From: a phage
Length of the DNA: 64,000 nucleotides
Sequence record: PQ478073.1
Strand: one strand, 5' to 3'
Shown: in pieces, positions 7,559-24,352 of the stretch
How the letters are laid out: the number at the start of each line of letters is the position of its first letter
Position numbering within the stretch: position 1 is the first letter of the stretch
Made by a program: the position numbers and the translations under genes
Notes under the pieces: generated by a model
The model's database searches: none
Seen by the model: the letters and a program-made list of their open reading frames with translations, nothing else
What the model was told of the DNA's origin: nothing

Positions 7559-7662
7559 TTCATTTGAAGCAATATTGTGGAGTTCTTAATAAATACTTTT
7601 ATAAGAATAATAATACTTTTTATTAAATTAAAAAGAACTCCATGTGTTATTTCAGTTTTTCG

Positions 7663-13977: not shown

Positions 13978-15783
13978 ATGCAATTAGATAAATTATATAC
14001 CGATGTAACAAATTTCCTAAATCAGAGTAATACTGATCTTACTAATGAAAACGCTAATAAAGATGCAAAATGCGTCAATACACATAGAGATTTACTAGCA
14101 GGTATTCTATCTAAGCATTATTCACAAGATGTTATTCCCACCGAGTTAATGCAATGGCATAATGATGGATATGGTCATATTCATGATTTAGATTACTATA
14201 TTAGCCCATTGACCAATTGTTGCTTGGTTAACTATCCTGATATGCTTAAAAACGGCTTCACTATTGGTTGTGCTAAAATTGAAGAACCAAAAAGTTTCAG
14301 TGTAGCTTGCACAGTACTGACACAAATTGTCCAAGCTGTTGCCAGTTCCCAATATGGTGGTCAATCTTTGGCTCACATTGATGTCGGATTAGAACCTTAC
14401 GTTCAAAAGTCATGGGATAAGCTGTTAGAAAAACAAAAGAAATATAATCTAAGTGATGAATTCATTGAAGAAGAACTACGTAAAGAAGTGTATGATGGCT
14501 GCCAAACATTACTTTACCAAACTAATTCAATGATTAGTACTAATGGTCAAGCTGCATTTATTTCTCTTAGTTTAGGTCTTAACACTTCTAAATTTGGTAA
14601 ATTAATCACTGAACAGTACTTAAAAGTCCATGAGAATGGTTTAGGTAAAGATAAGATTACTCCAGTGTTTCCTAAAGTAATTTTCTTTTTACAAGATGGT
14701 ATAAACATGAATACCAACGATAGTAATTATGACCTTAAACAGTTAGCTATGCGTTGTGCATCAAAACGAATCTACCCTGACTTTGTTTCAGTACCATTAA
14801 ATCACAAAGTGACTGGAAGTAGTAGTACTGCTGTAACACCGATGGGCTGTCGTTCATTCTTAGGAAAATGGGAAGATTCAAATGGAAATGAACAATACAA
14901 CGGTCGTTTCAATTTAGGTGTGGTTTCTATCAATTTACCTCTAATTGCTCTTGAGAGTACTTCTGACGGAGAGTTTTTTGATAAGATAGACGAGCATATG
15001 AATATTGCATATCGTGCTCAGATGAACCGCGTAGAGCGTTTAAAAGGCACTAAAGCAAAGCAAAATCCAATTTTGTTCATGGAAGGTGCATTAGCACGTT
15101 TAGGTGCAGAAGAAACCATTGACAAGCTATTTTACAATGGTTATGCTAGTATTAGTATTGGTTATGTTGGACTTGTTGAATGTTCAGAAATCCTCACTGG
15201 TTCTATCAGTAAGGAGTTTTGTATGTCAGTACTGAATTATATGAAAGTAAAATGCGATGAGTTCAAAAAAGAGAGTAATATAGCTTTTAGTCTATATGGA
15301 ACGCCAGCAGAGTCACTTTGTTATAAATTTGCACGTTGTATTGAAGCAAAATATCCTTCAGTACTAAAACGTGATTACATCACAAATTCCTTCCATCAAC
15401 CAGTATGGGTAGAAAGTTCTCCATTTGATAAATGGAGTTATGAAGAAGGCTTTGCTTACCTAAGTAACGGTGGAAACATCAGTTATGTTGAATCTCCAAA
15501 CTTAGCAAACAACATTCAAGCACTTGAAACATTAGTTAACTATGCTTACACGAAGATACCATATTTTGGTATTAACCAACCAGTTGACCATTGTTATGAA
15601 TGTGGCTTCCAGGGTGAGTTCAGTGTAGATAAACATGGTTTCCACTGTCCGGTATGTGATAATCGTAATGAGAAGACAATCTCAGTGATTCGTCGTGTTT
15701 CTGGTTACTTGGGTAATCCTTCTTCGCGTGGATTCAATAAAGGCAAACAACAAGAGTGTTGTGAGCGTATTCAGCACAAATAA
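13978..15783 (+). CDS. nrdD: anaerobic ribonucleoside-triphosphate reductase (class III RNR)
   Basis: strong similarity to recalled T4 NrdD (LTNENANKD N-terminus, glycyl-radical RVSGYLG, C-terminal Cys cluster); start set to ATG 13978 by homology and AAGGA RBS. Confidence 0.9.
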   Translation: MQLDKLYTDVTNFLNQSNTDLTNENANKDAKCVNTHRDLLAGILSKHYSQDVIPTELMQWHNDGYGHIHDLDYYISPLTNCCLVNYPDMLKNGFTIGCAKIEEPKSFSVACTVLTQIVQAVASSQYGGQSLAHIDVGLEPYVQKSWDKLLEKQKKYNLSDEFIEEELRKEVYDGCQTLLYQTNSMISTNGQAAFISLSLGLNTSKFGKLITEQYLKVHENGLGKDKITPVFPKVIFFLQDGINMNTNDSNYDLKQLAMRCASKRIYPDFVSVPLNHKVTGSSSTAVTPMGCRSFLGKWEDSNGNEQYNGRFNLGVVSINLPLIALESTSDGEFFDKIDEHMNIAYRAQMNRVERLKGTKAKQNPILFMEGALARLGAEETIDKLFYNGYASISIGYVGLVECSEILTGSISKEFCMSVLNYMKVKCDEFKKESNIAFSLYGTPAESLCYKFARCIEAKYPSVLKRDYITNSFHQPVWVESSPFDKWSYEEGFAYLSNGGNISYVESPNLANNIQALETLVNYAYTKIPYFGINQPVDHCYECGFQGEFSVDKHGFHCPVCDNRNEKTISVIRRVSGYLGNPSSRGFNKGKQQECCERIQHK

Positions 15784-15791
15784 GGTAAATT

Positions 15792-16124
15792 ATGGATTTA
15801 AAGCCAATTGTGGTTAACAAATACAAAGAACCGTATGATGTGTATATTGGACGTGGGTCTAAATGGGGAAACCCATTTACCCATATTAAAGATAAACAAA
15901 CTAAAGCCGAATTCATTGTTAGTACAAGAGAAGAATCAATTGAAAAATTCAGAGAATACATTATTGAACGTATTTCTTGTGGAGAAGTTAAGATTGATGA
16001 ATTACTTGAACTCGCAGGGAAACGCCTTGGTTGTTTCTGTAAACCCAAATCATGTCACGGCGATGTTCTTGTCGAAATAGTGAGTGCAATATTAGATGAA
16101 TTACCAGACGATAATCAAGGATGA
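15792..16124 (+). CDS. conserved hypothetical protein (GSKWGNPF motif)
   Basis: AAGGTA RBS; sits between nrdD and nrdG. Confidence 0.5.
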   Translation: MDLKPIVVNKYKEPYDVYIGRGSKWGNPFTHIKDKQTKAEFIVSTREESIEKFREYIIERISCGEVKIDELLELAGKRLGCFCKPKSCHGDVLVEIVSAILDELPDDNQG

Positions 16125-16566
16125 TTTAGTAAATGGAGAGGGCGTTCGCTGCTCTTTATTTGTTAGTGGGTGTTCGCACGGATGTGATGGTTGCTTCAAT
16201 GAAGAAGCATGGGACTACCGAAGTGGACAAGAGTTCAGTACTGAAACAGTTGAGATTATACTACAGGAACTAAAAAAACCATATGTTAGTGGGTTGTCAC
16301 TTCTAGGTGGTGATCCATTAATGAAAAAGAATATAGATGAAGTTTTAAATCTATGCAAAGTAGTTAAAGAAACTTATCCTAGTAAAACTATTTGGTGCTG
16401 GAGTGGGTATACTTTAGATGAGATTATGAAAAATCATTCTAAAGATATACTTCAGTACTTAGATGTATTAGTTGATGGTAAGTTTATTGAGTCCGAAAAG
16501 AATTTAAAATTACCTTTCCGTGGTTCAAATAATCAAAGAATACTATATAAAAATAAAGATTTTTAA
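16096..16566 (+). CDS. nrdG: anaerobic RNR activating protein (radical SAM)
   Basis: aligns end to end with recalled E. coli NrdG (MNY...VNG.G.RC.LFVSGC.H.C.GC.N); overlaps upstream ORF by 29 nt. Confidence 0.9.
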   Translation: MNYQTIIKDDLVNGEGVRCSLFVSGCSHGCDGCFNEEAWDYRSGQEFSTETVEIILQELKKPYVSGLSLLGGDPLMKKNIDEVLNLCKVVKETYPSKTIWCWSGYTLDEIMKNHSKDILQYLDVLVDGKFIESEKNLKLPFRGSNNQRILYKNKDF

Positions 16567-16570
16567 CATA

Positions 16571-16592
16571 AGCACCCGTTGGGTGCTTTTTT
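16571..16592 (+). terminator. intrinsic terminator
   Basis: AGCACCC/GGGTGCT stem, T6. Confidence 0.6.
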
Positions 16593-16642
16593 GTTATGTA
16601 TATAAATACATTAACTAATATCTAATTTATAAGGGATATATA

Positions 16643-19339
16643 ATGTCAAAGAAAATATATGGTGGCTTGGATGTCACACATAATGTGACAGTTAATGGTA
16701 AAAGAACAATACAAGGTATCAATGATCAAGTATTTGATGCTAATGGCAATATGGAGCTAGATACTTATTCAAGAGATGAAGTACTAGATATCGTCAGTAT
16801 GATGCCAATTTCCCATTATGGGTCACAAAACTATCTTCCTGCTGGTGTATCTGGTGATTTCAATGGTGCATCTGAAAACCAGTCCCAACGTAGAAATAAA
16901 ATTTTATTAGAAAACGATGGTACACTCGTATTATTACGTAGTGGTACAAACGGTAGTGTTGAGGGATTATATTATTCATATTTGGCTAACGCATTATCAG
17001 TTGATGACATGAGCCGTACAATTAACACCAGTCGTCAATACAAGCCTGGTTTTTTCGGTTCAAATCGCGTCGCAATTGGCTTATACAATACTGATCCAAA
17101 TATTTTACTCGGTAGATATGTAGACACTTCTAACAGTACTAATGGATTGTTTATTTCTATTACTAATGGTACATTAGATGATAAATTACATACTGGTTTT
17201 TTTGTAAATCAAGCAGATATTTGCCCTGAAGGGGGTATAGAATTTGCAATGATGGCTGAAGATGGTTCAATCTATGTCTTTAGTGTTCTTAATGAAAATA
17301 ACCAACTACAGTTAGTTGTTGTCCGAGTTGTATATAATATTAGCAATGGAACATATACGGCAACTCGTATTACAGGATGGACTACAAAAACATTCTATAA
17401 TACAACTTATTCTGCACAGAATAACATGGTTATTACTAATCAAGTAACTTCAACTAATATAGCAGATAAGCCTTATGTGTATGTACCACAAAACCTACGT
17501 GGTATTGGGATTTATATGACATCCATTGATTTGTATGTTGCACAGCAACCAGGAACACAGAACTTTCGTTTTAGAATGAATGGTGATGCATGGTTTACAA
17601 TGGCGACATATAATGTCCGACCACAACATAGCTACAGCTTTGCATTTAATATGAGTACTAAACAATGCACCCTAGACGCTGGGAATGACATAGGTTCATA
17701 TCAAGCACCATTGGTTATAACCAATACTGGCTCTGCATTAGTGCCTACAGGTAACGTTTTAAATAATGATCCATTATATAATCATGCTGGTGCAAGAAAC
17801 ATTTATAGTTCATATTTTTATTTGAATTCTGGTGAAGCTTTTTGTACTGCATGTCCAAACTTAGCAGAACCATTACTTATGCAAAAAGCTAAGTTTCCTA
17901 TTCAAATAGTTTATAGTATGCTGAATGTCCGTGCTGTACTTTCTACTGACTTCAAAGGTGGTATAGTTCGCCCGTCTTTTGGTTCAGCGGTTGGTTCATT
18001 TATTAATGGTGTAGAATTACTACCAGATAACAGTACTAAACAATATTCACGTGCATCAGGTAGTGGTGGATTTAGACCATCATATGCAGTTCATAAAAGT
18101 ACTCCTAATTTTACATTTAAATCATTATCTTTAGGAACAATACAAGGTTATGAACCTACAGTTGAACGTGCTAATGTTGATGATAATGCAAATAATAGAA
18201 TTTTTATTAGTAGTATTTCTGGGTCAACTGTCACAACCAATGGTGGTATTTTTATGGTTGGGCAACGTTATTCACAATCATTATCCTATGATAAAAACTT
18301 AAATGGCACAGGAATTATAAGCGTTACACAATCAGTACTGGACAATTTTAGAAATACTGAATATGCCAAAGTTCTAAGTGACTGGAATTTATCAGCACAA
18401 GCATACCGTGATATGACACTATTTGTTCCACAACAAACAGACATTCCAGCTTTTGTTATGTTGAGTACAATTACTAATGATTATAGAAACTATATTAGAA
18501 TTGCTGAAGTTAATGTCAATACTAGAGTTGGTAATATTACATCTATTACATTTAAGCGTTTAGTACTTGAGAATACGTATGGTGATAACTTTACACCAAC
18601 TGGGAATGGTTCGATTGCATCTTCTTCTGTTGGTTTGACCATATATGATGGTGGTTCATTCTACTTCATTGGTGGTTCTGACCCATTATCACATCCAACA
18701 ATAGGTAATACTGCAACTCATCAATTTAGAGCATATGTAACTAAATCAACTGCACAATTTACAAGTTTTATAATTACTGGTTCTCATGCCAGTTATGAAC
18801 AAGGAAGTCAACCAGCAGCGTTACCTGGTATTGGTTTTGGAATTTTTGAACCAATGGATTACTCAAATAAAATGACATTCAAAAAATATGGAACAACGAT
18901 TGCAGACTATAATAACTGGACTGCACAAGGTAGCCCAATTAACGTAGTATCCCAGGACGTTGCTCAAGGGTTTATTGTATATTTTACAGAGGAAACACCA
19001 GTTATTCTTTCAGGTAAGTCATTTTCACTACCAGTTTCAAATATTGATTTGAGAACTATTAAGTCTAATCCAGCAAATACAACATTTTATGTATATGTTA
19101 AATTGGAACAAGGATTGGCAAACTATTACATAACTACTGATGTTATTTCTGAAACAGGAACAACTGCATATAATATTTTTTGGATAGGTACAATTCAAAC
19201 TAACGCAATTCAAATCGAAACAATTAATATACAAAAACGTTCCCGTTTAGATATATTTGGTGCTTCACTTGAATCAGCAGGTTCATCGTTCCCAGTTAGC
19301 TACGGTCTACCATCACAAACAGGAACCATAAACTGGTAA
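16643..19339 (+). CDS. tail fibre protein (paralog family)
   Basis: 898 aa, T/S/N/G-rich; shares N- and C-terminal modules with 19955-22684 and 19351-19938. Confidence 0.6.
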   Translation: MSKKIYGGLDVTHNVTVNGKRTIQGINDQVFDANGNMELDTYSRDEVLDIVSMMPISHYGSQNYLPAGVSGDFNGASENQSQRRNKILLENDGTLVLLRSGTNGSVEGLYYSYLANALSVDDMSRTINTSRQYKPGFFGSNRVAIGLYNTDPNILLGRYVDTSNSTNGLFISITNGTLDDKLHTGFFVNQADICPEGGIEFAMMAEDGSIYVFSVLNENNQLQLVVVRVVYNISNGTYTATRITGWTTKTFYNTTYSAQNNMVITNQVTSTNIADKPYVYVPQNLRGIGIYMTSIDLYVAQQPGTQNFRFRMNGDAWFTMATYNVRPQHSYSFAFNMSTKQCTLDAGNDIGSYQAPLVITNTGSALVPTGNVLNNDPLYNHAGARNIYSSYFYLNSGEAFCTACPNLAEPLLMQKAKFPIQIVYSMLNVRAVLSTDFKGGIVRPSFGSAVGSFINGVELLPDNSTKQYSRASGSGGFRPSYAVHKSTPNFTFKSLSLGTIQGYEPTVERANVDDNANNRIFISSISGSTVTTNGGIFMVGQRYSQSLSYDKNLNGTGIISVTQSVLDNFRNTEYAKVLSDWNLSAQAYRDMTLFVPQQTDIPAFVMLSTITNDYRNYIRIAEVNVNTRVGNITSITFKRLVLENTYGDNFTPTGNGSIASSSVGLTIYDGGSFYFIGGSDPLSHPTIGNTATHQFRAYVTKSTAQFTSFIITGSHASYEQGSQPAALPGIGFGIFEPMDYSNKMTFKKYGTTIADYNNWTAQGSPINVVSQDVAQGFIVYFTEETPVILSGKSFSLPVSNIDLRTIKSNPANTTFYVYVKLEQGLANYYITTDVISETGTTAYNIFWIGTIQTNAIQIETINIQKRSRLDIFGASLESAGSSFPVSYGLPSQTGTINW

Positions 19340-19350
19340 AGGATTACATA

Positions 19351-19938
19351 ATGGCATATAAAATAAGAGCAGACCTTAAGGCAATGCAACAAGTTACAGT
19401 ACAGGGTAAAAGTACTGGACTTGGTGTATTAGGTAATAATATGACTTATTACCCAACAAATTCAAATGGGGAATGTACATTCCCCTCTATTACCAAAGAT
19501 GAAGTTAACTTTATTGTCAATGGATTACCACTTACACAATACGGAGAATTGTATGATGACGCTAGTCTAAATATTACTTCATCAGGCTATAGTCTTACAT
19601 TTAATAGACAGATACCATCATTTATTGGTGGTTATCTTTATAAATTTCCAGCAGTTTCTATTTTTGCTTCAACTGTTTCATCTGGAACACAAACACAATA
19701 TGTATATGCAACGTTAGTTCTCGGTGAACCAATTTATAAAATATCACCAACACAAATACAAGAATCTGAAATTATAATGTTTATTGGTACTCTTACTGTA
19801 GGTACAAGTGGTATTACAAATATAAACATTAATAAAGTATCCAGATTTAGTACATATAGACCTAGTGTTACACAAAAAGGTTCTTCATTCCCAGTCAGTA
19901 CTGGAAAACCATCAGAAACTGGTACAATTGGTTGGTAA
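19351..19938 (+). CDS. short tail-fibre-related protein (mini paralog)
   Basis: 195 aa carrying the fibre N-terminal and C-terminal conserved segments (C-term GSSFPVSTG.PS.TGTIGW). Confidence 0.5.
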   Translation: MAYKIRADLKAMQQVTVQGKSTGLGVLGNNMTYYPTNSNGECTFPSITKDEVNFIVNGLPLTQYGELYDDASLNITSSGYSLTFNRQIPSFIGGYLYKFPAVSIFASTVSSGTQTQYVYATLVLGEPIYKISPTQIQESEIIMFIGTLTVGTSGITNININKVSRFSTYRPSVTQKGSSFPVSTGKPSETGTIGW

Positions 19939-19954
19939 ATTAAGGAAAAGAAAG

Positions 19955-22684
19955 ATGTCATCAAAACGAATTATAGGAAGTGCCGAGATCCTTGGGAACT
20001 TGGCAATTGGACAAAGGTACGCTATGCGTACTTTTAATGGAACCTCACCGAATGCCAATACTGGAATTGTTCAATATCCAATATATAAGCGTTCAGAAGT
20101 TCAAAGTATTTTAGATATGTTGCCTATATCACGTGTAGGAGAAATGGATTACTTACCATTAAACGTAAGTGGGTCGTATGAAGGTGCTACACCTATGTCA
20201 AGTGACCAAGTAGTTCAGCCAACAATTATTGAAGATGATGGAACCGCCGTTGTTCTGCGTAGCGGAACCAATGGTAGTACTAAAGGTTTTTATTATTCAT
20301 TTATACGAGAACTCCGAAATATAACTATGATTTCACAAGAAAGTGTTATTTCAACCAATTCAATGTATAAACCTTCAATTATGAGTAGTACTGAAAATAT
20401 TAAGTATTTTATTGGCTCTAATGGTTATGAGATGCTTGGATGTTTAAGTACTGAAGATAATTATATTTTTACTATAACCAATGGCACATTTAACGAAATA
20501 TCACATATTCATGCTAAAGTGCCAAGTACTTCTTTTGGTAATGATATGCCAATATATACACATATTGTTGGGACAAAGGTTTATATTTGGTGTAAAGATA
20601 AAAGTGTTTCTAATTTAGGATTAGCACTTTCAATTTATACAGTAGAGCTAAGTGATGTGAAAGCAAGCTCAATGGCATCATTAACAAAAGTTACTGGGTT
20701 ATCAGGTCAAACTGTTCGAAACACAAGTTATTCTGCATCTAATAACATAAGAGTGTTCGATAAATTATATAGTGTTGGTACTAGCTCGGATTCATTATTC
20801 GAAGTTACATCACCAGTATCACGTGTAGAATTTTCAGACTATACAGACTTTAACATTCAAGCCAACGTTAGTCCTGATTTATCAAAAATACGTGTAACTT
20901 TATATCCAACACATCGAATGGTTACACCTTTGTATATTTCAACAGTTTATGGTACTGGAATAAGTTTTGTTTATAATATAAACTCAAAATCTATGTCACT
21001 AGATGGTAGTGCTCGTGCACCTGCAACTGTTTCATATAATAATGGATTTCAAGTTTCTAACCCATTTGAAATTAATATGGTCAACTTCACAGGGACAACT
21101 GCTGCTGGTGTATTAGGAAACGCAGGTGGTTTATGTCAAACTAAAGATGGTTTGGTATTTGCATCTAAATTTAGATGGAGTTCAACTGAATTTTATGGTC
21201 TACAACGATATAAGGTTAGTGGTACACCGTTTGATTCATGGGTTGCCAGTACTAGAACCGCAAGTAACGTTATAAATGCAAACGTTTTACCAGTTTTTGG
21301 TAGTGCTGTTGGTGCAAACCTTTTAGGTGTACGTTTCATCGATAATAGAAAAATATTATTAGCATGTTCTGGTACGTATGATGATGTAACATATAATTAT
21401 AATAATACTGTTTTTTCTGAAATAGGTTCACAACCAACATATCAATATAACTCAGTTCAAAATAATACTACATTAAATGGTTTTGCACCACAATCTAATC
21501 GTAAACAAATAGGCGATGATTTTACATACACTGCTATGATTTCTCTTGTTGATACCGATGGTAGTGTTAGATGCTATGGAACATCATTCATTGAAGGTGT
21601 ATATAAAACAAGTGGTGGATTATTAAATCCAGATACTTTAGAATTTGATGAAACATATACAATAGAACCAACGGTATTAGAATCATTAAAACAAGATATT
21701 TTTGCTAATATAGGAAACTCTGGCATTGTTGGTACACTATCTGGACAAATTGTATTATATTATGTACCTGATAATACTTTTTCTAAATCCATCGCAGTAG
21801 TTTCAGCATATAATCTTAACAATAACCAAGGTTATGCAATCTATGCCGAAGTTGATGTTGTATTATCTGGAACTAACATAACTTCAGCTACATTGGTGAG
21901 TACTAGATATGAGACACTTAGTTCTGTTACAGGAATTATTACTGAAGCATATATGAAACGTTGTACTGGTCTAACAGTTGCAAAATATTCAGGATTTGGT
22001 TACATTGGTGTTGATGCTGTTCATCAATTTTCACAACCAGGTAATGCACAATTTAAGATGATGATAGCTAAAACAGTAGATGGTGTCATAACATCAAATC
22101 GTTTTTTATCATCTAGTTACATCCAACTTGGTGCAGCATATCAACATGGTGTTATTCCTGGTGTTGGTTTTGGATATTACAATTTTCAAGATTCTGACTA
22201 TCAAACCAAATCTGTATTCAGCGTTTTTGGTACAACATCTGCTGAAATGGATGGTTTAATTAGCGGAAATGGTAGCGTTAAAGAAAAGATTGTGGTAGTA
22301 TCACAAGACGTTGCACAAGGATTCTCAGTGTACTTTACACGTGAAGTTCCGGTGTTTTTAGGTGGAATTTTCGACAGACTACCTATACAAAGTGTTGATT
22401 TAAGTACTGTAAAAAGTAACCCAGCTAATACTACGTTCTATTTGTATATACAAATGAACAGGAATACTAAGAAAGCGTCATATGTTATTAGTACTGAAAC
22501 AATTGATGAATCTTTAACTAGCACTTACATTGGTAAGATAGTTACTGGAACTTCAGGAATAACTTCAATTGATACAGAAAAAGTAACTCGTTTTTTGACA
22601 TATCGTCCAAGTACAACGAAACGTGGTTCAGCGATACCTGCCAGTACTGGTGTACCATCAGGTCCAGGTACACGTTGGAAATAA
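19955..22684 (+). CDS. tail fibre protein (paralog family)
   Basis: start re-placed at ATG 19955 (AAGGAAAAG RBS); shared VVSQDVAQGF...KSNPANTTFY block with 16643 gene. Confidence 0.6.
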   Translation: MSSKRIIGSAEILGNLAIGQRYAMRTFNGTSPNANTGIVQYPIYKRSEVQSILDMLPISRVGEMDYLPLNVSGSYEGATPMSSDQVVQPTIIEDDGTAVVLRSGTNGSTKGFYYSFIRELRNITMISQESVISTNSMYKPSIMSSTENIKYFIGSNGYEMLGCLSTEDNYIFTITNGTFNEISHIHAKVPSTSFGNDMPIYTHIVGTKVYIWCKDKSVSNLGLALSIYTVELSDVKASSMASLTKVTGLSGQTVRNTSYSASNNIRVFDKLYSVGTSSDSLFEVTSPVSRVEFSDYTDFNIQANVSPDLSKIRVTLYPTHRMVTPLYISTVYGTGISFVYNINSKSMSLDGSARAPATVSYNNGFQVSNPFEINMVNFTGTTAAGVLGNAGGLCQTKDGLVFASKFRWSSTEFYGLQRYKVSGTPFDSWVASTRTASNVINANVLPVFGSAVGANLLGVRFIDNRKILLACSGTYDDVTYNYNNTVFSEIGSQPTYQYNSVQNNTTLNGFAPQSNRKQIGDDFTYTAMISLVDTDGSVRCYGTSFIEGVYKTSGGLLNPDTLEFDETYTIEPTVLESLKQDIFANIGNSGIVGTLSGQIVLYYVPDNTFSKSIAVVSAYNLNNNQGYAIYAEVDVVLSGTNITSATLVSTRYETLSSVTGIITEAYMKRCTGLTVAKYSGFGYIGVDAVHQFSQPGNAQFKMMIAKTVDGVITSNRFLSSSYIQLGAAYQHGVIPGVGFGYYNFQDSDYQTKSVFSVFGTTSAEMDGLISGNGSVKEKIVVVSQDVAQGFSVYFTREVPVFLGGIFDRLPIQSVDLSTVKSNPANTTFYLYIQMNRNTKKASYVISTETIDESLTSTYIGKIVTGTSGITSIDTEKVTRFLTYRPSTTKRGSAIPASTGVPSGPGTRWK

Positions 22685-22690
22685 ATTTAA

Positions 22691-22718
22691 AGCTCGTCTA
22701 TTGACGGGCTTTTCTTTT
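22691..22718 (+). terminator. intrinsic terminator (overlaps -35 of next promoter)
   Basis: 8-bp stem, T-rich tail. Confidence 0.45.
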
Positions 22719-22751: not shown

Positions 22752-23318
22752 ATGGTCAAAACTTTATTACCACCACCAAAACGTCACAAAATCAAAGAAA
22801 TGAAAGAACAACGTACATTAAAGATGTACAACAATTTAGTTAAGTTACTGTGTAAAAGTCCATCGCTCAAAGCAGAGTTTAAAACTGATGATGACCGTAA
22901 AGCACTAATTGAGATGAAATATATGCTCAGTAAAATGTCCTTTTACAAATTTGTAAAAGAATACGCATCTGACCCATTTAGTCCTCGTTGGAGAGCCAAA
23001 CCAAGAGAGTATTTTTACGGTGGTTCATATACAGATCGCATTCAAGACACAGTGATGGGAGTTGAATTTGAAATCGATTATGAGCCGAATGGTGAGGAAA
23101 TCTTGCAGATTGAGAAACGTTTACCAAGTGAAGAAGAAATTTATGTTTATGCAAGAAAACTTTCAACTTACAGTTCAAGAATTACTCTAGGCAATTTAGA
23201 TTCATTAATTATTTTCTATACACGTGTTGGTGTAGATAAGATGGTAACTAAACTCAATGAACTTTCATTACAACAAAAACAGATTAATGCATACAAAGAC
23301 ATTACTGATTTATACTAA
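22752..23318 (+). CDS. hypothetical protein, member 1 of tandem paralog triplet
   Basis: AGGAGG RBS; shared motif TDDDRKALIEMKYMLSK. Confidence 0.5.
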   Translation: MVKTLLPPPKRHKIKEMKEQRTLKMYNNLVKLLCKSPSLKAEFKTDDDRKALIEMKYMLSKMSFYKFVKEYASDPFSPRWRAKPREYFYGGSYTDRIQDTVMGVEFEIDYEPNGEEILQIEKRLPSEEEIYVYARKLSTYSSRITLGNLDSLIIFYTRVGVDKMVTKLNELSLQQKQINAYKDITDLY

Positions 23319-23324
23319 TGAGGA

Positions 23325-23846
23325 ATGGATATGTTTTTTGGATCAGTTGGAAAACAAAACAGTACTTTAATTTGGCATGAAATTATCTTTAAAATTATAT
23401 CTAAAAGCTACTCACTAAAGGATATTATCACCACAGATAATGATAGACGTATCCTGTTAGATGCAAAATATAAATTGAGCAAACACCCTTTACTTTCTTT
23501 AATCATTGATTACGTTAATGATTATGAATCTAGTCGTTGGAAGTGGGAAGACGGCGGTTTATTTCGTGGAAAAACATTCTACGGTGCGGAACGATATGTT
23601 TTCAGTGATGCATCAAATGGCGTTAAGTTTGTTATTAGAAACTTTAACTCCAAAGAAAATGATTATCTTGAAAGTGGAGTGAAAGTATATATCGATAATA
23701 ATAGCAATGTCCTAACATATGACGAATCACTAATTATGTTACAAATAATGCGTGGTGTTGAAGGTGTAAGAAACAACCTTACTAAATTGAAAATCCAGCA
23801 AAATGATATACATAATAGACAGAAAATTAAGGGTTTATATAAATGA
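23325..23846 (+). CDS. hypothetical protein, member 2 of tandem paralog triplet
   Basis: motif TDNDRRILLDAKYKLSK. Confidence 0.5.
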   Translation: MDMFFGSVGKQNSTLIWHEIIFKIISKSYSLKDIITTDNDRRILLDAKYKLSKHPLLSLIIDYVNDYESSRWKWEDGGLFRGKTFYGAERYVFSDASNGVKFVIRNFNSKENDYLESGVKVYIDNNSNVLTYDESLIMLQIMRGVEGVRNNLTKLKIQQNDIHNRQKIKGLYK

Positions 23847-24352
23847 TTTCATTTTTCAAAAAGAAACAAAAAGTTGATGAAACAGGATTAGAATCGTTTC
23901 TATGGACTCTTATCATCAAAAAAAGTCCATTGATAAAAGAATATGCTATCAATGATGCTAATAGAAAAACTATCATTGAATACAAATACGAATTATCAAA
24001 ATGTGATCCAATCGTTTATCACTTTGCGAAGTACTGTTCAAAAAATTTATCGGATATCACAATAGACCATGAGTCAGTTCCAATGAGCTTTCCTTATGGT
24101 GATTGGGTAGATACTTTTGATATTTTTGATGGGTCCAATGGATTCAGTTTCTTTTACTCGTCAAATAAAGCAAATGTTCGTATTAAAACAGAGATAGGTT
24201 GGGCACAGCATAGCTCAAATAAAGAAGATTATAATTTACTAGCTGACGTATACCGAAGTGTGAAGAATTCAAAGGATATTGATGAAAGAATTAAAAAGCA
24301 AAATCGTATTTCTTTATCACTTGAAACATACAAGTCAAAGTATGGTGGTTAA
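23843..24352 (+). CDS. hypothetical protein, member 3 of tandem paralog triplet
   Basis: motif NDANRKTIIEYKYELSK; ATGA coupling. Confidence 0.5.
   Translation: MISFFKKKQKVDETGLESFLWTLIIKKSPLIKEYAINDANRKTIIEYKYELSKCDPIVYHFAKYCSKNLSDITIDHESVPMSFPYGDWVDTFDIFDGSNGFSFFYSSNKANVRIKTEIGWAQHSSNKEDYNLLADVYRSVKNSKDIDERIKKQNRISLSLETYKSKYGG

Follow-up and report, generated by a model that had tools for sequence, protein, structure and literature searches.

Jumbo phages are under development for therapy, and their host-recognition proteins are mostly labelled 'hypothetical'. The described system nearest to the one reported here is the row of tandem paralogs gp131–gp135 of the jumbo phage phiKZ, which have their assembly segments in common but not their distal parts; gp131 carries a C-terminal seven-bladed beta-propeller (Sycheva 2012), and the row includes a very small paralog, gp132, of 110 amino acids (aa). 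The N-terminal domains of these phiKZ proteins form the fibre attachment on the baseplate, a hetero-hexamer composed of three copies of gp131 and one each of gp133, gp134, and gp135 (PMC13250141). In phage SPN3US, the 1727-aa protein SPN3US_0168 (gp168) was identified as a tail protein from the proteomes of mutant particles (Thomas et al., PMC5105663). A cassette of three paralogous genes, all of full length (900–946 aa), lies 3′ of nrdD/nrdG in phages CBB (gp147–149), GAP32 (GAP32_143–145), and fHe-Yen9-03 (g140–142). Here, we describe the orthologous cassette in a stretch of phage DNA of 64,000 nucleotides (nt; record PQ478073.1; hereafter, the window), where three consecutive genes at 16643–22684, termed A, M, and B, encode two long proteins separated by a stub of 195 aa; the trio resembles the phiKZ row in its tandem paralogs, common assembly segments, very small member, and distal body predicted to be a beta-propeller. 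A, M, and B are probably paralogous receptor-binding subunits of the tail that are expressed late, among which M would be a subunit made up of the assembly modules only.

A megablast search with 16643–22684 matched 33 phage records, the closest 22 at 95–99% identity, with Escherichia phage UB (97.6%) at the top, followed by PBECO4, phAPEC6, SP27, and Sharanji. As judged by sequence similarity, the source phage is an Asteriusvirus (PBECO4/121Q-like), that is, a Rak2-like jumbo myovirus of ~350 kb. The trio genes are labelled 'hypothetical protein' in every one of these records, and the record of phAPEC6 annotates only the first of them. No paper was found in the literature that assigns a function to the trio genes or describes the family, the trio, or its stubs.

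Shared modules of the three paralogs

The genes and their modules are as follows.

16643–19339, + strand: gene A, 898 aa; slot-1 paralog; ortholog of CBB gp147 and phAPEC6 gp323c; virion protein
16643–16867, + strand: N-terminal module (N-module) of A, aa 1–75, including the junction motif PISHYGSQNYLPAGVSG; common to M and B
16868–18937, + strand: body of A, aa 76–765; predicted to be all-beta, of beta-propeller type; M is without it
18938–19336, + strand: C-terminal module (C-module) of A, aa 766–898; predicted beta-sandwich and a conserved tail ending in W
19351–19938, + strand: gene M, 195 aa; slot-2 paralog reduced to N-module (aa 1–75) and C-module (aa 77–195); ortholog of the 916-aa CBB gp148
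19955–22684, + strand: gene B, 909 aa; slot-3 paralog; ortholog of CBB gp149
19955–20194, + strand: N-module of B, aa 1–80
22289–22681, + strand: C-module of B, aa 779–909

An earlier note, made from the sequence of the window, had described these as three consecutive fibre genes that share terminal motifs, and all three open reading frames (ORFs) were found at the positions that it gave. The length of 939 aa assigned there to B is that of a mechanical ORF beginning at GTG; the start of B is instead the ATG at 19955, preceded by an AAGGA ribosome-binding site, which yields a protein of 909 aa and agrees with annotated B orthologs of ~908–913 aa. No further copy of the family besides A, M, and B is present in the window.

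By BLASTP, A and B align colinearly over their full length (27% identity, 947 columns, E 2e-63). The motifs that had been noticed in both proteins lie within this end-to-end alignment, and the pairwise comparison that had been proposed as a check found them to be significant. The ends are more conserved than the middle (first 115 aa, 40% identical, E ~3e-23; last 135 aa, 47%, E ~3e-30), and the central regions are homologous and more diverged; A and B are full-length paralogs rather than unrelated proteins with end modules in common. M does align just to the ends of its neighbors, as had been proposed: residues 77–195 match A 774–898 (36%, E 9e-17), residues 1–85 match A 1–74 (33%, E 5e-7), and residues 77–192 match B 787–906 (43%, E 7e-24), with a weak match of the M N-terminus to B (E 1e-3). 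The terminal motif GSSFPVS.G.PS.TGTI.W is exact in A and M, whereas B has the variant GSAIPASTGVPSGPGTRWK.

The AlphaFold model of A, built from an alignment of 28 sequences, is nearly all beta (predicted local distance difference test score [pLDDT] 84.9; predicted template-modelling score [pTM] 0.78), and its low-confidence parts (pLDDT below 50) are residues 1–56 and 869–898 only, the tips shared with M. The body is predicted to be globular and of propeller type, not fibrous, with the fold of beta-propeller glycosidases and lectins (sialidase, GH43/GH32/GH130, AAL-type); its length and ~50 strands would accommodate two propellers. The predicted C-module has the beta-sandwich shoulder fold found in the receptor-binding protein (RBP) of lactococcal phage p2 and in the N-terminal domain of TssK of the type VI secretion system, but it shows no detectable sequence similarity to either, is C-terminal here, and may be split by the body. 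In the model of M (mean pLDDT 64), a core at ~70–162 reaches pLDDT 83–95 and the ends are of low confidence; the fold predicted for this core is similar to structural RBP and baseplate domains, and a phi812 baseplate protein, HFTV1 gp42, and Mtd were named beside it. A Pfam scan of A, M, and B (E up to 1) gave noise only, and glycosidase and lectin families were without a match in this profile test; searches of the PDB by sequence and with the A1 and A2 profiles found no relative.

Origin of M and recurrent loss of the body

The CBB locus 3′ of nrdD/nrdG encodes three full-length paralogs of 902, 916, and 916 aa (gp147, gp148, and gp149), and the same locus of the Yersinia phage fHe-Yen9-03 encodes proteins of 928, 900, and 946 aa (g140–142). 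In contrast, the order is long-short-long in all Asteriusvirus genomes examined, including the divergent A4 (894/196/913 aa), JNE01, and Turkey3. By reciprocal BLAST against CBB gp147–149, A pairs with gp147 (46% identity) and B with gp149 (35%), while gp148 is the top match of M at both ends (M 1–67 with gp148 1–67, E 4e-10; M 79–195 with gp148 798–916, 45%, E 5e-30) and occupies the same slot of the conserved nrdD-nrdG-trio locus; type-specific tail signatures fit the A-gp147, M-gp148, and B-gp149 pairing. M, orthologous to full-length CBB gp148 by both position and sequence, is thus the slot-2 paralog and has lost a body of ~720 residues. Programmed frameshifting from A into M was considered and rejected, as the two genes do not share a frame, an 11-nt gap lies between them, and M has its own ribosome-binding site.

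All 11 homologs of M, at identities down to 46%, are 195–202 aa long and share 40 invariant columns. The ratio of nonsynonymous to synonymous substitution rates (dN/dS) is 0.20–0.29 for M at dS above 1, the highest of the trio, compared with 0.08–0.11 for A and 0.13–0.19 for B. These values indicate that M is under purifying selection and is not decaying; a pseudogene was rejected on the grounds of constant length, invariant columns, and dN/dS of 0.2–0.3. Of the two long genes, it is the body of B that evolves fastest (61–71% identity, vs. 75–88% for the ends of B), which would suit a role in ligand binding.

Loss of the body is also found outside slot 2. The profile search recovered minis of 190–194 aa with the same two-module architecture that are of the A type: their C-modules are 58–60% identical to those of A and gp147 and have the A-type insertion of four residues, AYNxFW, which is not in M. 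The gene context of these minis, read from Logan and ENA contigs of uncultured Rak2-like relatives, is nrdD, nrdG, an extra gene, the A-type mini, a gp148-type gene (915–918 aa), and a gp149-type gene (918–920 aa). In one lineage the extra gene encodes a tailspike (phrog_19988, E 5.5e-164; contig L018, 1173–3227) and in the other a tail-fibre protein (phrog_33406, E 7.6e-47; contig L020, 7598–9001) whose start is formed by the initial ~38 N-module residues of the family (hidden Markov model E 1.5e-8); the latter gene and the start of the A-type mini overlap by one base. A scan of IMG/VR with the A-type mini P0185 matched only the C-modules of full-length proteins. In the Erwinia phage Deimos-Minion, gp18 (420 aa) is body-less: its gp131-like N-terminal domain runs straight into the C-module (E 3.5e-31).

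Body-less paralogs arose at least three times, in different slots and lineages, and every one of them retains an N-terminal attachment piece and the C-module; once, loss of the body was coupled to gain of a different receptor-binding gene. Because recurrent body loss always keeps both ends, the two ends would constitute a self-sufficient assembly unit, and the body would be the exchangeable part. The modular exchange of receptor-binding domains that the earlier note had suggested does not apply to A and B, whose centres are homologous, but is seen in the uncultured relatives, where a tailspike or tail-fibre gene and a mini replace the A-type gene. Stub paralogs separate the parts needed for assembly from the exchangeable binding body and so mark a rational site for host-range engineering.

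Tail-protein relatives and alternative explanations

The family to which the trio belongs is large and has neither a Pfam entry nor a solved structure. An exhaustive profile search returned 563 cluster representatives (clusters defined at 50% identity) with E no higher than 1e-3, of which 255 had E no higher than 1e-30; the majority are 870–1000 aa and are matched over their full length, and some of 1100–2488 aa have the unit embedded in them. Among PHROG families, A (E 9e-276) and B (E 8e-267) belong to phrog_3573 and M to phrog_26864 (E 4e-115), with a weaker match to phrog_7449 (1714 residues); all three are described as of 'unknown function'. By tblastn, the family occurs in 171 phage records, and each of 40 sampled rows is a jumbo phage: Asteriusvirus, Mimasvirus (CBB), Eneladusvirus, Agricanvirus, Xoo-sp14, Elvirus (EL), Seoulvirus (SPN3US), and Aeromonas and Kosakonia jumbo phages. 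Where the tblastn matches are annotated, their labels are 'virion structural protein', 'minor tail protein', and 'tail protein'; in Kosakonia phage Kc263 and Aeromonas phage D3, for example, the C-module ends proteins of ~1210 aa labelled 'tail protein' or 'virion structural protein'. The family appears to be a major class of jumbo-phage tail receptor-binding proteins in both Rak2-like and phiKZ-like lineages.

Experimental evidence comes from two relatives. The A ortholog of phAPEC6, gp323c, was detected in virions by mass spectrometry (MS; 4 unique peptides, 5.6% coverage; PMC7247149). The SPN3US tail protein gp168, considered together with phrog_7449, contains the junction motif, body, and C-module of the family, its residues 546–1412 aligning to the family profile over body and C-module (hhalign 99.15%), but it is about twice as long as A or B, having an N-terminal extension of ~545 aa and ~315 residues after the C-module, which is therefore not terminal. 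Residues 22–155 of that extension resemble the N-terminus of phiKZ gp131 (E 2e-9). The same fusion is found in EL gp114 and gp115 and in Deimos-Minion gp19, where N-terminal regions of 250–300 aa homologous to phiKZ gp131/133/134/135 (E 1e-10 to 1e-19) precede the junction motif, body, and C-module of the family; all three genes adjoin baseplate genes. A gp131-like N-terminal domain is thus fused to the family unit in EL, Agricanvirus, and SPN3US. The description of the trio as fibre genes can be kept with respect to function, its relatives being tail or virion proteins and some of them carrying the gp131 fibre-base fusion, but not with respect to shape, given the globular model of A.

A, M, and B themselves lack the gp131-like domain of ~250–300 aa, having ~55 residues before the junction motif; because this defining domain is missing, they are not members of the phiKZ gp131–135 family. 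Searches with the A1 and A2 profiles (E up to 10) gave no match among the ORFs of phiKZ 122–219 kb, which include gp131–135, and the C-module was undetected there. The family unit is better seen as a distal unit that, by homology, is shared with the gp131-type proteins of EL, Deimos-Minion, and SPN3US.

In the phAPEC6 record (L001, MK817115.1), M (14709–15296) and B (15313–18042) are intact yet unannotated, and a 37-aa ORF is annotated inside B. In Deimos-Minion, gp18 (L007, 3760–5022) and gp20 (L007, 8616–12071) are annotated 'putative membrane protein', a label that looks wrong; gp20 belongs to the family in full (body, E 5.6e-91), and the similarity of its N-terminal region to gp131/gp132/gp133 is only weak (E about 2e-4).

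In the explanation that we favor, A, M, and B would be three paralogous subunits of the tail host-recognition apparatus, most likely at the baseplate periphery. A full-length subunit would comprise a short peptide at the N-terminus for attachment or oligomerisation, a large and faster-evolving beta-propeller body that would bind, and possibly cleave, a surface glycan, and a conserved C-terminal beta-sandwich of the p2-RBP-shoulder/TssK type, the highly conserved tail of which would mediate trimerisation or docking. M would have been retained since the position that it holds in the assembly cannot be left empty; it would be either a chain in a hetero-oligomer together with A and B or a separate stub on the baseplate. 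Ligand binding by the body, the oligomeric state, the anchoring end, and the presence of M in the virion are what we infer from the comparisons above. The shoulder fold of the C-module suggests that this module would be the anchor, and the gp131-type fusions suggest the N-terminus; the N-terminal piece and the C-module may pack together. A separately expressed tip or adaptor, as the 195-aa protein had earlier been described, is still the best reading of M, a conserved gene under purifying selection and derived from a full-length paralog, and M may act as a docking adaptor. None of this contradicts current understanding of phage tails, in which modular receptor-binding proteins are a known principle.

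Several observations weigh against this explanation. Detection of the A ortholog in phAPEC6 is limited to those 4 peptides at 5.6% coverage, and the published phAPEC6 virion proteome may have missed M and B because both are unannotated in the record; the MS table of CBB does not include CBB_147–149, and the label 'structural protein' of CBB gp148/149 could not be traced to the MS data in that table. The trio is surrounded by nucleotide-metabolism genes, outside the main tail module, and its placement on the particle, like its baseplate location in Asteriusvirus, is inferred. In p2 RBP and TssK the shoulder is N-terminal and anchoring, whereas here it is C-terminal, and the chimallivirus anchor is the gp131-like N-terminal domain; because its position differs from that in p2 RBP and TssK, the C-module could be an anchor, a trimerisation cap, or a tip. 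The model of M is without a usable structure for the N-terminal 65 and last 33 residues, and because the ends of M are unmodelled the shoulder resemblance rests on ~95–120 predicted residues. No motif for sugar binding or catalysis was recognised in the sequence of the body. A strict 1:1:1 heterotrimer is made less likely by EL and Agricanvirus, each with two full-length copies instead of three.

A more specific proposal, which we regard as tentative and possible rather than probable, is a three-slot hetero-oligomer with one chain per paralog type, joined through the shared end modules, in which any slot could be reduced to an anchor-only stub and the freed position could dock a different receptor-binding protein. 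Docking of this kind is suggested by the tailspike or tail-fibre gene beside the A-type stub and by the tail-fibre protein that begins with the family N-terminal peptide. A tblastn search of Asteriusvirus genomes with A residues 1–60 matched at most 2–3 places in each, consistent with the trio itself (positions not individually checked), and no partner of M emerged. If true, this would amount to a previously undescribed plug-in mechanism of host-range change, resting on a new family of domains in which the shoulder-like anchor is discontinuous.

M might instead be a non-structural assembly factor, a tail-fibre chaperone or template that imitates the ends of A and B for a time, so as to assist their folding or trimerisation, and is absent from the finished virion, which we consider unlikely. 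In its size of ~195 aa and its position directly 3′ of a large tail-protein gene, M is like the Tfa and T4 gp38-type chaperones and has the usual size and place of fibre assembly proteins; it evolves faster than A and B, it is not reported in any virion proteome, and the A-type mini of contig L020 and the stop codon of the tail-fibre gene before it overlap. However, its absence from the phAPEC6 proteome may be due merely to the gene being unannotated there, and M is homologous to its neighbors' own ends and orthologous to full-length CBB gp148, annotated as a structural protein, not to a chaperone family; it has no Pfam match, tail-fibre assembly families included, and its predicted folded core is like structural RBP and baseplate domains. 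Caudo_TAP and Peptidase_S74-type Pfam profiles matched neither M nor the C-termini of A and B, and a C-terminal self-cleaving chaperone was rejected for want of a Peptidase_S74 match.

It is quite unlikely that the trio is some other virion decoration, whether a collar or distal-tail decoration or the bases of the 'hairy' whiskers of phAPEC6 and CBB. These phages do bear unassigned hair-like fibres and decoration proteins on collar, sheath, and capsid, the trio sits apart from the main block of tail genes, and the baseplate placement of A itself is indirect. Yet the trio is annotated with GAP32 homologs and in the CBB authors' view GAP32 should lack whisker genes, while the family occurs in many jumbo phages not reported to have whiskers and in EL, SPN3US, Agricanvirus, and Aeromonas jumbo phages takes the form of a gp131-type fibre-base fusion or bears the label 'tail protein'; moreover, the model of A is globular, as opposed to a whisker filament of 119 nm, and tailspike and tail-fibre genes are inserted at the trio locus in relatives. 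That M is a functionless, decaying remnant of the middle paralog is very improbable: it did arise by a large internal deletion and does have the highest dN/dS of the three genes, but its frame is intact, its length is held across lineages with dS above 1, its invariant columns and dN/dS are as given above, it keeps its own ribosome-binding site, and the same architecture occurs independently in another slot and in Agricanvirus.

Probable transcription unit and neighboring genes

The preferred explanation includes late expression, which is suggested by the elements that border the trio.

16570–16588, + strand: intrinsic-terminator-like hairpin, AAGCACCC-GTT-GGGTGCTT followed by a T run; closes the nrdD/nrdG unit and forms the upstream border of the trio
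16601–16608, + strand: T4-late-promoter-like motif TATAAATA, core ATAAATAC, 35 nt 5′ of the A start
22689–22712, + strand: intrinsic-terminator-like hairpin with a 10-bp stem and T run, after B; ends the three-gene unit

The upstream hairpin also precedes the orthologous gene in phAPEC6, A4, Turkey3, CBB, fHe-Yen9-03, and contig L020. Between the hairpins, the trio genes are separated by spacers of 11 nt (A-M) and 16 nt (M-B), and each has its own ribosome-binding site (AGGA for M). The motif TATAAATA occurs once on the + strand of the window, and a core nATAAATACA lies ~40 nt before the orthologous start at seven loci (phAPEC6, A4, JNE01, Turkey3, CBB, fHe-Yen9-03, and one metagenomic relative), between which the surrounding sequence has diverged. 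ATAAATA is fourfold depleted in the window (10 observed vs. 40 expected), with copies on the + strand at 16602, 26027, 47840, 50914, 54625, and 55150 and further copies at 7589 and 51756. Most of the + strand copies sit 35–130 nt upstream of virion genes: one is 57 nt before the tail sheath gene, one 42 nt before the tail tube gene, one 35 nt before a virion-protein gene, and another upstream of a tail-fibre/tail-protein pair. The ATAAATA(C) motif looks like a T4-late-type promoter of Rak2-like phages, and because the motif upstream of A is read in this way, A-M-B would be a single late operon, as its position and conservation suggest.

Directly 3′ of B is a second set of tandem paralogs, at 22752–23318, 23325–23846, and 23843–24352 (188, 173, and 169 aa), which are related to one another (pairwise E 5e-15 and 1e-4), share the motif D.R..L...KY.LSK, and have no assigned function; genes of similar size also come after the trio in CBB and in metagenomic relatives. 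On the other side of the trio, a 110-aa ORF (15792–16124) lies between nrdD and nrdG, and at the equivalent position A4 has a gene annotated as a DUF4326 protein. Other extra small genes in this interval encode a pyruvate formate-lyase-like fragment (A4 and fHe-Yen9-03) or a 'structural protein' (CBB); the stretch between nrdD and nrdG therefore differs from one Rak2-like phage to another.

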